A DNA stretch of 55,187 bases from Candidatus Sericytochromatia bacterium. GTDB lineage: Bacteria > Cyanobacteriota > Sericytochromatia > S15B-MN24 > UBA4093. Both the position numbers and the translations under genes were made by a program. Positions within the stretch are counted from its first letter, which is position 1; each line of letters begins with the position of its first letter. Where the stretch lies: positions 1 to 55,187 of the forward strand of contig JAKFBU010000050.1 in assembly GCA_036676985.1 (NCBI GenBank). The letters are read 5' to 3'. The notes under the pieces are model-generated. The model did no database searches and was not told where the DNA came from. It saw nothing but the letters and a program-made list of their open reading frames with translations. Positions 54,142 to 55,187 of this stretch are shown here, in pieces.

Positions 54142-54180
54142 AAAAACGAAGGGACCCGGGCGTATCCCCGGGTCCCTTCG
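54142..54180 (-). terminator. Rho-independent terminator after the tRNA cluster
   Basis: CGAAGGGACCCGGG/CCCGGGTCCCTTCG followed by TTTTT on the minus strand. Confidence 0.9.
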
Positions 54181-54184
54181 TGAG

Positions 54185-54257
54185 TGGAGGTAAGCGGATT
54201 CGAACCGCTGACCTCTGCAGTGCGATTGCAGCGCTCTACCAACTGAGCTATACCCCC
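54185..54257 (-). tRNA. tRNA-Ala(CGC), CCA not encoded
   Basis: Cloverleaf with anticodon arm CTGCA-ATCGCAC-TGCAG and G3:U70. Confidence 0.93.
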
Positions 54258-54282
54258 ACGACAACGGGCCCTGAGGCCCGAG

Positions 54283-54355
54283 TGGAGGATAGCGGACTCG
54301 AACCGCTGACATCCTGCTTGCAAAGCAGGCGCTCTACCAACTGAGCTAATCCCCC
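54283..54355 (-). tRNA. tRNA-Ala(TGC), CCA not encoded
   Basis: Cloverleaf with CCTGC-TTTGCAA-GCAGG and G3:U70. Confidence 0.96.
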
Positions 54356-54369
54356 AAGAAATGGAAAAG

Positions 54370-54443
54370 TGGGCAATGCTGGACTCGAACCAGCGACCTC
54401 ACCCTTATCAGGGGTGCGCTCTAGCCACCTGAGCTAATCGCCC
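54370..54443 (-). tRNA. tRNA-Ile(GAT), CCA not encoded
   Basis: Cloverleaf with CACCC-CTGATAA-GGGTG. Confidence 0.96.
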
Positions 54444-54490
54444 GTAAAAACCTTGGATTGTCTCCAAAACCGCGTTAGACGGCTATTTCC

Positions 54491-54519
54491 ATCCTAGCGG
54501 GATCGCCGTCGCTTGTCAA
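54491..54519 (-). promoter_or_regulatory. Sigma70 promoter for the tRNA-Ile-Ala-Ala cluster
   Basis: TTGACA-N17-TAGGAT. The -35 overlaps the stop codon of the upstream CDS. Confidence 0.8.
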
Positions 54520-54899
54520 CGCTGAGCGATCTGCCGCCAGAGGTCCTCCATGGGCCGGCGCAGGGCCAGTTTGCCCTGCATCAGGTCCGGATCGAAGTTC
54601 AGAAACCCGTGCACCAGGTAGATCTCGGCGGGCGTGCAGTTGAACAGGAGCTTGAGCTCGGTGTCCCCCTTGCGGTGATCGACGGTGCGCTCGTAGCCGA
54701 CCACCCCGGTGTCCGCCGTGCCCACGAAGACGTCCAGCTCGGCCCCGTCCTCGCCCATCACTCCGTTCACGTAGCCGTAGTCGATGGGGTAGACGATGTT
54801 CGTCCACTGGGGGTGACGCGAGTGGCGCGGCCGATCGATGGTGATGCCCTGGGTGGCGATCGCGCGCTCCCACTCGTCCCACGGGGCGTCTGGGGGCAT
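54516..54899 (-). CDS. Short inorganic pyrophosphatase-like protein
   Basis: IDRP...HP....YPIDYGY....EDGAELDVF (family I has DGDPLD). AGGAGG RBS. Confidence 0.7.
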   Translation of the reverse strand: MPPDAPWDEWERAIATQGITIDRPRHSRHPQWTNIVYPIDYGYVNGVMGEDGAELDVFVGTADTGVVGYERTVDHRKGDTELKLLFNCTPAEIYLVHGFLNFDPDLMQGKLALRRPMEDLWRQIAQR

Positions 54900-54920
54900 G
54901 GGCGGACCTCCTGAACGACG

Positions 54921-54951
54921 AAAAAGGCCGGAGGGCGAACCCTCCGGCCTT
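54921..54951 (-). terminator. Rho-independent terminator downstream of 16S rRNA
   Basis: AAGGCCGGAGGG-TTCG-CCCTCCGGCC-TTTTT. Confidence 0.88.
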
Positions 54952-55077
54952 GAAAGGGCCTTGACAACTAGACAGTGAGAGGCGCTGGGGTGTTACCCAG
55001 CCTACGAGTAGCCGTGTGACTTGTATCAACCTGGTGAGGTATCGCTCTACGCCGAAGCTAGAGCGATGTCTCCCTAG

Positions 55078-55187
55078 AAAGGAGGTGATCCAGCCGCACC
55101 TTCCGGTACGGCTACCTTGTTACGACTTCACCCCAATCATCTGCCCTGCCTTAGACGGCTGCCTCCTTGCGGTTGGCCCACCGGCTT
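55078..55187 (-). rRNA. rrs: 16S rRNA 3' end (truncated by the window edge)
   Basis: Reverse complement reads ...AAGTCGTAACAAGGTAGCCGTACCGGAAGGTGCGGCTGGATCACCTCCTTT. Confidence 0.98.

Follow-up and report, generated by a model that had tools for sequence, protein, structure and literature searches.

How did a 16S ribosomal RNA (rRNA) gene come to be followed by a protein gene and three transfer RNA (tRNA) genes, with no 23S gene behind them? The question is raised by one end of a contig from Candidatus Sericytochromatia bacterium (JAKFBU010000050.1), analysed over its whole length of 55,187 nucleotides (nt) and called the window below. The window is the complete contig C50 of a draft genome of 79 contigs and 4.68 Mb (G000). 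Sericytochromatia are non-photosynthetic relatives of cyanobacteria. The canonical rRNA operon has the order 16S-tRNA-Ile-tRNA-Ala-23S-5S. The minus strand of the window carries the end of a 16S gene, a terminator-like hairpin, a coding sequence (CDS) for a pyrophosphatase-like protein, a promoter-like site, genes for tRNA-Ile(GAT), tRNA-Ala(TGC) and tRNA-Ala(CGC), and a second hairpin.

An earlier note, made from the window alone, had described the 16S end, the spacer, both hairpins, the CDS with its AGGAGG, the promoter, the three tRNA genes, a lipoprotein gene and a 5S gene, and all of these features were recovered with their coordinates unchanged. The note took the locus to preserve the steps of an operon break-up. 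The comparison with related genomes gives another order of events. The separation of 16S from 23S is old and order-wide, a case of the known unlinked rRNA genes, and the window is likely to be the 3' end of an unlinked 16S transcription unit that carries a genus-specific cassette and works in the way proposed below.

Unlinked 16S and 23S-5S genes in the order

No 23S gene was found by the Rfam scan anywhere in the window. Within 1500 bp downstream of the 16S gene there are instead the CDS, the three tRNA genes and the lipoprotein gene. The place that the 23S gene takes in a canonical operon, after the spacer tRNAs and on the same strand, is occupied by the second terminator-like hairpin, 3' of tRNA-Ala(CGC), and then by the lipoprotein gene. 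Both rRNA pieces in the window are truncated genes at contig ends, with the 3' part of a 5S gene at the left and the 16S end at the right. The 5S gene, which the earlier note had reported 55 kb away, is present and on the opposite strand, but it is not a stray copy: it ends a separate 23S-5S unit with tandem promoters of its own. The 5' flank of the 23S gene is on contig C79 of the same genome, which ends 17 nt into 23S and has a strong terminator followed by two TTGACA-18-TAGGAT sites. The 23S body is unassembled in G000.

Twelve loci from relatives were scanned with Rfam, and nine of these belong to the order of the window (G001, G003, G004, G006, G007, G012, G014, G016 and G018:C332). G001, of the same genus, was assembled separately, and G007 represents another genus of the same family. 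A 23S gene behind the 16S gene or the tRNA cluster was found at none of the nine loci, over 4.6-9.1 kb of downstream DNA in eight and 0.9 kb in G012. The tRNA genes lie directly 3' of 16S (or of the contig end) in seven, namely G003, G004, G006, G007, G012, G014 and G018:C332. The spacer between 16S and tRNA-Ile measures 118-225 nt in the five loci where it could be determined (G006, G007, G012, G014 and G018:C332), compared with 634 nt in the window. A complete 23S-5S unit in G016 is preceded by 2.4 kb of DNA without rRNA or tRNA genes, and in G003 and G007 the 5' end of 23S is terminal on its contig (135 kb and 444 kb, respectively).

Two genomes represent other orders of the same class, G028 and G030, and both retain a linked 16S-Ile-Ala-23S-5S operon; between their 16S genes and the complete ones of G007, G016 and G012 the identity is 83-85%. 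Since all nine loci of the order are unlinked over the DNA at hand, while both genomes from other orders are linked, the split is old and order-wide. The proposal that 16S is unlinked from 23S in the window is thereby borne out, with no 23S in the window or behind the 16S and tRNA genes of its relatives. The proposal that this locus in particular records the break-up is not, because the split is common to the whole order and the terminator, CDS and promoter would be a later insertion restricted to the genus.

Two contigs with rRNA genes were set aside as foreign to the bins in which they were found. One is G018:C149, where the operon is complete and linked and the 16S gene has only 77-80% identity to the group. 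The other is G007:C19, a 644-bp contig of 16S-23S spacer with low G+C and tRNAs read by the author as of proteobacterial type. Taken at face value, these contigs would wrongly suggest linked operons.

The wider arrangement can be seen in a 713-kb contig of G007 (G007:C22). It starts with the 3' end of 23S (1-216) and a 5S gene (328-443, plus strand), and about 41 kb further on has tRNA-Ala(CGC), tRNA-Ala(TGC), tRNA-Ile and a complete 16S gene (41947-43450, minus strand). Positions 347-39809 of this contig are collinear with window positions 1-43858, and the DNA 5' of its 16S gene matches the start of contig C78 of G000. The 16S end of the window is 97% identical to that of G007. In the ancestor of the order, 16S and the spacer tRNAs would have parted from 23S-5S, and in the family of the window the 16S and 23S-5S units would be convergent across 41-55 kb of ordinary genes, each with promoters of its own.

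The block between the 16S trailer and the tRNA genes

In an alignment of the spacers, the 16S trailer is conserved in the family up to position 54955 and the sequences become alignable again about 25 nt before tRNA-Ile. Between these points G000 and G001 carry the first hairpin, the CDS and the promoter; G007 and G004 have an unrelated stretch of about 80 nt and G006 a much shorter one. The cassette is about 490 nt long and is present in both genomes of the genus, and position 54955 is the exact foot of the helix formed by the 16S leader and trailer. An insertion of this block in this genus alone, at the foot of the 16S helix, is considered probable, as part of the explanation judged as a whole.

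The leader piece, found on contigs C78 and C29 as their shared terminal 123 nt, pairs with window positions 54955-55075 at -86.1 kcal/mol, compared with -55.3 +/- 5.5 kcal/mol for 300 shuffles, of which the best reached -71.7 kcal/mol. A homologous leader-trailer helix also forms in G007, G012 and G016. A long helix of this kind is the usual substrate of RNase III. The earlier note had suggested looking for the gene of this enzyme, and an RNase III domain gene is present in the genome (101 bits). Because the cassette lies exactly at the foot of the helix, the signal for 16S maturation would be left intact.

The first hairpin is the first element of the cassette and starts 3 nt past the foot of the processing helix. 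Its 12-bp stem contains a G+C-rich core of 10 bp, and none of 200 shuffles folded as well. The hairpin is identical in G001 and absent at the matching place in G007, G004, G006, G012 and G014. Both hairpins have the stem-loop and U run of intrinsic (Rho-independent) terminators and are predicted to terminate transcription; the second was partly listed by the pattern scan. The strong terminator that had been proposed behind 16S stands as a terminator-like hairpin.

In 53900-55187 no promoter-like site other than TTGACA-17-TAGGAT was found, compared with 0.3 in shuffles. This site is situated about 45 nt upstream of tRNA-Ile and its TTGACA overlaps the stop codon of the CDS. It has the hexamers and the spacing, within 16-18 nt, of a sigma-70-type promoter and is conserved in relatives. 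The hexamers are unchanged in G001, where the spacer between them differs, and in the variant found in run X6, which differs from the window at 54477, 54483, 54510 and 54526. The dedicated tRNA promoter of the earlier note is confirmed as a consensus-like site. The hexamers are also those of both 23S promoters on C79; in front of 16S, on C78 and C29, the sites are TTGACA-17-TATGAT, TTGACA-17-TAATAT and TTGACA-17-TAAAGT. Judged by these motifs, the tRNA promoter belongs to the stable-RNA promoter class of the genome. The three tRNA genes that it would serve are each the sole copy in the assembly, according to a census of 56 tRNA genes.

The protein encoded in the cassette has 146 homologues at E <= 0.001, some of which are named inorganic pyrophosphatase by their sources. 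The Pfam scores are below the gathering thresholds (PF00719, 19.4 against 23.5 bits; PF18823, 20.1 against 26.8 bits), and a profile of the family matches pyrophosphatases in the PDB at E 1e-5 over the core motif, within which the invariant acidic, Tyr and Lys columns fall. A structure model of the protein of 127 amino acids has a predicted local distance difference test score of 95.6. Among the Foldseek matches listed, all are pyrophosphatase entries, with a query-normalised template modelling score (TM-score) of only 0.40-0.54 and a root-mean-square deviation of 5-12 Å. The protein aligns with the family I soluble inorganic pyrophosphatases (PF00719) in the core motif region, where its invariant columns lie, but differs from them in its short length, low TM-score and Pfam score below gathering. 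By sequence and model it is probably a small, distant relative of that family, with putative pyrophosphatase activity. The ratio of nonsynonymous to synonymous substitution rates between G000 and G001 is 0.19 over 127 codons, and the gene is therefore maintained by purifying selection.

Homologues of the CDS were found in 9 of 31 genomes: both genomes of this genus, none of eight from other genera of the family, none of eight f4 genomes and seven of eight genomes of f3, a sister family in the same order. The f3 homologues are at loci without nearby rRNA, tRNA-Ile or tRNA-Ala genes. These loci were considered as the source of the cassette and rejected, as neither the hairpin nor the promoter is found there.

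Alternative readings and the expression of the locus

Three other explanations bear on the layout, the origin of the cassette and its transcription. Collapse of rRNA repeats in metagenome assembly could have fused the 16S end to unrelated DNA: the window contig terminates inside rRNA genes at both sides, the overlaps in the assembly graph are 123 nt, the 16S end of C50 has no partner contig in the bin, and two foreign rRNA contigs were met with in the bins of relatives (G007:C19 and G018:C149). The junctions nevertheless recur in the independent assembly G001, where the stretch from the trailer through hairpin, CDS and promoter to the tRNAs is 88% identical to the window. They are also found in contigs from runs of two studies. 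Contigs of run X1 span 54415-54983 and 54956-55099 without any difference from the window, and those of run X6, from a different study and representing a slightly diverged strain, span the same junctions (54417-54983 and 54954-55097). The trailer of the window is moreover complementary to the 16S leader of the same genome, synteny with the 713-kb contig of G007 extends from 5S to 16S and beyond, and all nine loci of the order agree. The layout is genuine, with misassembly excluded by the independent assemblies, and the earlier note was right to argue against it; the chance that an artefact accounts for the locus is close to nil. Another explanation accepts the layout and makes the cassette ancestral to the family, a relic that was deleted in the other genera. 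The presence of CDS homologues in f3 shows that the gene family is not foreign to the order, and a form without the cassette coexists in run X1, so that gain or loss may be ongoing. This history would require at least three independent, precise losses in place of one gain. Homologues are missing from the eight other genomes of the family and from the eight f4 genomes, and those in f3 are 53-64% identical, at unrelated loci and without hairpin or promoter; several metagenome homologues of unassigned origin are closer (66-83%). In the spacer alignment no remnants of the cassette are visible in the other genera. Deletion of an ancestral cassette is therefore improbable, though less so than an artefact, and insertion in the genus is preferred.

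With an inserted cassette, the 16S gene would be transcribed from its own promoters and its transcript would fold into the leader-trailer helix. Most of the polymerases that transcribe 16S would stop at the first hairpin, and the three tRNAs would be made mainly from the new promoter, ending at the second hairpin. The CDS, which has no promoter of its own, would probably be expressed from 16S transcription that reads through the hairpin. The same elements could alternatively still work as one operon, in which polymerase from the 16S promoters passes the hairpin and yields a 16S-CDS-tRNA precursor. The hairpin would then be mainly an attenuator, or a protective 5'/3' stem after cleavage by RNase III, and TTGACA-17-TAGGAT a mere booster. 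Antitermination complexes of rRNA transcription can read through hairpins. The CDS, 21 nt past the U run and under purifying selection, is followed by no terminator before tRNA-Ile, and in relatives such as G007 the tRNA genes directly follow the 16S trailer without a terminator, so that co-transcription is the ancestral condition. A single precursor is harder to reconcile with the canonical intrinsic-terminator features of the first hairpin (z -4.6), with promoter hexamers that stay the same across three sequence variants with changes in the adjoining bases, and with the match of the tRNA promoter to the 23S promoters of the genome. Continued function as one operon, with the hairpin and promoter in these lesser roles, is taken as a whole to be doubtful, if the most serious of the three alternatives. 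The description of the tRNAs as rescued by the promoter was in any case overstated, as 16S transcription may still reach them and the form without the cassette is found at similar depth in run X1. A narrower proposal is that the CDS reaches expression solely by extension of the pre-16S transcript at its 3' end, the leaky terminator setting its dose and RNase III, cutting at the foot of the 16S helix, freeing an mRNA that has the hairpin as its protective 5' end. This is rather unlikely. If true, production of an enzyme that hydrolyses pyrophosphate would be tied directly to how fast rRNA is transcribed, and rRNA transcription is the largest source of pyrophosphate in the cell.

Several points weigh against a terminated 16S unit followed by a separately promoted tRNA unit. 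The genomes compared show how the locus is built, how far it is conserved and in which order it changed; the steps of transcription and processing are all inferred. In six RNA runs the share of sampled words present was only 0.07-0.10. The first hairpin was not flagged by the terminator pattern scan. Only 21 nt separate its U run from the ATG of the CDS, with no promoter-like site 5' of the CDS; a fully efficient terminator would leave this conserved gene silent, and the hairpin would therefore have to leak or play another part. In run X1 the contig with the trailer has a depth of 56.6 and that with the cassette 23.9 (2.4x), and one contig with a depth of 19 joins 54954 to 54464, skipping the 489-nt cassette; a copy or strain without the cassette therefore coexists with the form in the window. 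Short rRNA pieces that are present escaped the whole-genome family searches, so that absences drawn from these searches are weak. They gave no matches for 16S or 23S in G000, and none for 23S in five genomes although G007 and G003 hold 23S ends; the Rfam scans of fetched loci were used instead. The genome also has at least two rRNA sets: the DNA upstream of 16S occurs in two contexts (C78 and C29), as does that downstream of 5S (C50 and C40), whereas for the downstream side of 16S and the upstream side of 23S the bin contains a single context each. The second set could be linked in the canonical way, its short spacer contig having been left out of the bin; it could also be unlinked and lack the cassette, or reflect a second strain.

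The contexts of the two sets differ. C78 is syntenic with G007. C29 (L061) has the 16S leader at L061:1-123 and, at L061:514-9412, rpoB and an unsplit rpoC of 1,831 amino acids, reading away from 16S; this leader and its context recur at the start of G007:C5, where the DNA identity is 88% over 4.6 kb. Downstream of 5S, the window (98-150) and C40 (L048:98-170) share 26 nt and then have similar terminator hairpins with different loop inserts. This marks the two 23S-5S ends as true paralogues, as opposed to a duplicate made by assembly. A search of the 10 genomes of the family for a second 23S 5' context gave a match in five, none with more than one contig bearing the flank, and a search of five genomes for the neighbours of C29, C40 and C79 did not yield the layout of the second set.

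Feature coordinates, parallel rearrangements and published cases

The features of the window (Table 1) were called with an Rfam scan, an ARAGORN tRNA scan, a list of open reading frames (ORFs) with translations, a pattern scan for promoters and terminators, and hairpin folding compared with shuffles.

Table 1. Position, strand and basis of the features in the window.
Feature	Position	Strand	Basis and remarks
16S rRNA, last 110 nt	55078-55187	-	Rfam RF00177 positions 1424-1533, 98.3 bits; runs off contig end
16S trailer, 126 nt	55077-54952	-	3' strand of leader-trailer processing helix 54955-55077; basal stem strand about 54955-54981
First hairpin, terminator-like	54951-54921	-	12-bp stem, UUCG loop, U5; -26.3 kcal/mol, z -4.59
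Ribosome-binding site AGGAGG	54912-54907	-	Seven bases 5' of ATG at 54899
CDS, 127 amino acids, pyrophosphatase-like	54899-54516	-	ORF
Promoter TTGACA-17-TAGGAT, sigma-70-type	54519-54491	-	Pattern scan; 10/12 positions match
tRNA-Ile(GAT)	54443-54369	-	ARAGORN; Rfam 66.5 bits
tRNA-Ala(TGC)	54355-54282	-	ARAGORN, Rfam
tRNA-Ala(CGC)	54257-54184	-	ARAGORN, Rfam
Second hairpin, terminator-like, closes tRNA cluster	54181-54142	-	15-bp stem and U run; -33.7 kcal/mol, z -7.44
Large NHL-repeat lipoprotein gene, outside RNA units	50713-54066	-	ORF, signal peptide, IAGC lipobox, NHL and related Pfam matches
5S rRNA, 3' part	1-97	+	Rfam RF00001 positions 21-120, 49.5 bits

Other changes behind 16S are found in the same order. 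In family f3 the tRNA-Ile/tRNA-Ala pair stands alone; all six loci lack a 16S gene within at least 4.7 kb upstream, and four of the six lack a 23S gene within at least 2.3 kb downstream, the two other contigs ending too early to tell. All six pairs have a TTGAC(G/T)-17/18 promoter, read by eye, 30-60 nt upstream. In G016 (C32, L014:1720-1770) a terminator-like hairpin of 13 bp with a U-rich tail comes right after the 16S trailer and no tRNA genes are found in the next 5 kb, which by its motifs makes this genome an independent case of a putatively self-terminating 16S unit. The metagenome contig L071 (1700-2057) has a trailer like that of G007, a hairpin with U6, tRNA-Ile and then directly tRNA-Ala(CGC), with tRNA-Ala(TGC) missing at the locus. 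It was the one contig found with a looser two-motif pattern, the exact 46-nt trailer pattern giving no match in the metagenome scan. In G007:C22 (L013:5966-7588) two ORFs on the opposite strand (224 and 216 amino acids, in 1.6 kb) lie between tRNA-Ala(TGC) and tRNA-Ala(CGC), the 216-amino-acid one with a start like a signal peptide; G004, of the same genus as G007, has only 158 nt at that place. The cases of G016, L071 and G007 together make the region behind 16S a hot spot of rearrangement in the order.

Compared with the canonical operon as seen in G028 and G030, the locus has kept the order 16S, tRNA-Ile(GAT), tRNA-Ala(TGC), the leader-trailer helix and the promoter class. It differs in lacking 23S, in being closed by a third tRNA, Ala(CGC), and a terminator, and in having 23S-5S elsewhere, behind tandem promoters insulated by a terminator.

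Unlinked rRNA genes are described, in the parts of the preprint drawn on here, as having more than 1500 bp between 16S and 23S and as clustered in clades; the order Obscuribacterales of the Cyanobacteria was unlinked in 4 of 4 long reads, and RNase III genes were rarer in unlinked genomes (Brewer et al., bioRxiv 10.1101/705046). The present locus is like these cases in that 16S and 23S are not co-located, in its conservation within a clade and in belonging to a free-living organism (soil and groundwater metagenomes). It differs in the presence of an RNase III domain gene; those parts of 10.1101/705046 do not treat the fate of spacer tRNAs or mention Sericytochromatia. Types of rRNA gene placement, with tRNA and protein genes between rRNA genes, have been described in genomes of the Candidate Phyla Radiation (Lui et al. 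2021, PMC8172020). As far as the sections of that paper used here go, its cases belong to small genomes of that group and the inserts named are often homing endonucleases. Here the genome has 4.7 Mb and the insert is a pyrophosphatase-like gene bracketed by a terminator and a promoter, placed between 16S and the trailing tRNAs and not between 16S and 23S. A limited literature search found no report of unlinked rRNA genes in Sericytochromatia and none pairing "Sericytochromatia" with "unlinked".

The general picture of rRNA gene organisation is unchanged by this locus: the rearrangement is of a known kind and comes with an insertion specific to the genus. An order of Sericytochromatia is added to the lineages with unlinked rRNA genes. 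Within this one order there is a graded series, from 16S with trailing tRNAs, through 16S cut off from its tRNAs by an inserted gene, to a putatively self-terminated 16S without tRNAs and free-standing tRNA-Ile/Ala pairs with promoters, which may be useful for asking how stable-RNA operons dissolve without loss of function. Amplicon methods that span 16S, the internal transcribed spacer and 23S will miss these organisms.

Next to the tRNA cluster, window positions 43858-54144 form a block of 10.3 kb that has no counterpart in the interval of G007, which is collinear in other respects. The block holds two adjacent NHL-repeat lipoprotein-like genes of about 1,100 amino acids each, both on the minus strand, at 47400-50771 and 50713-54108, the second being the gene given in Table 1 as 50713-54066.

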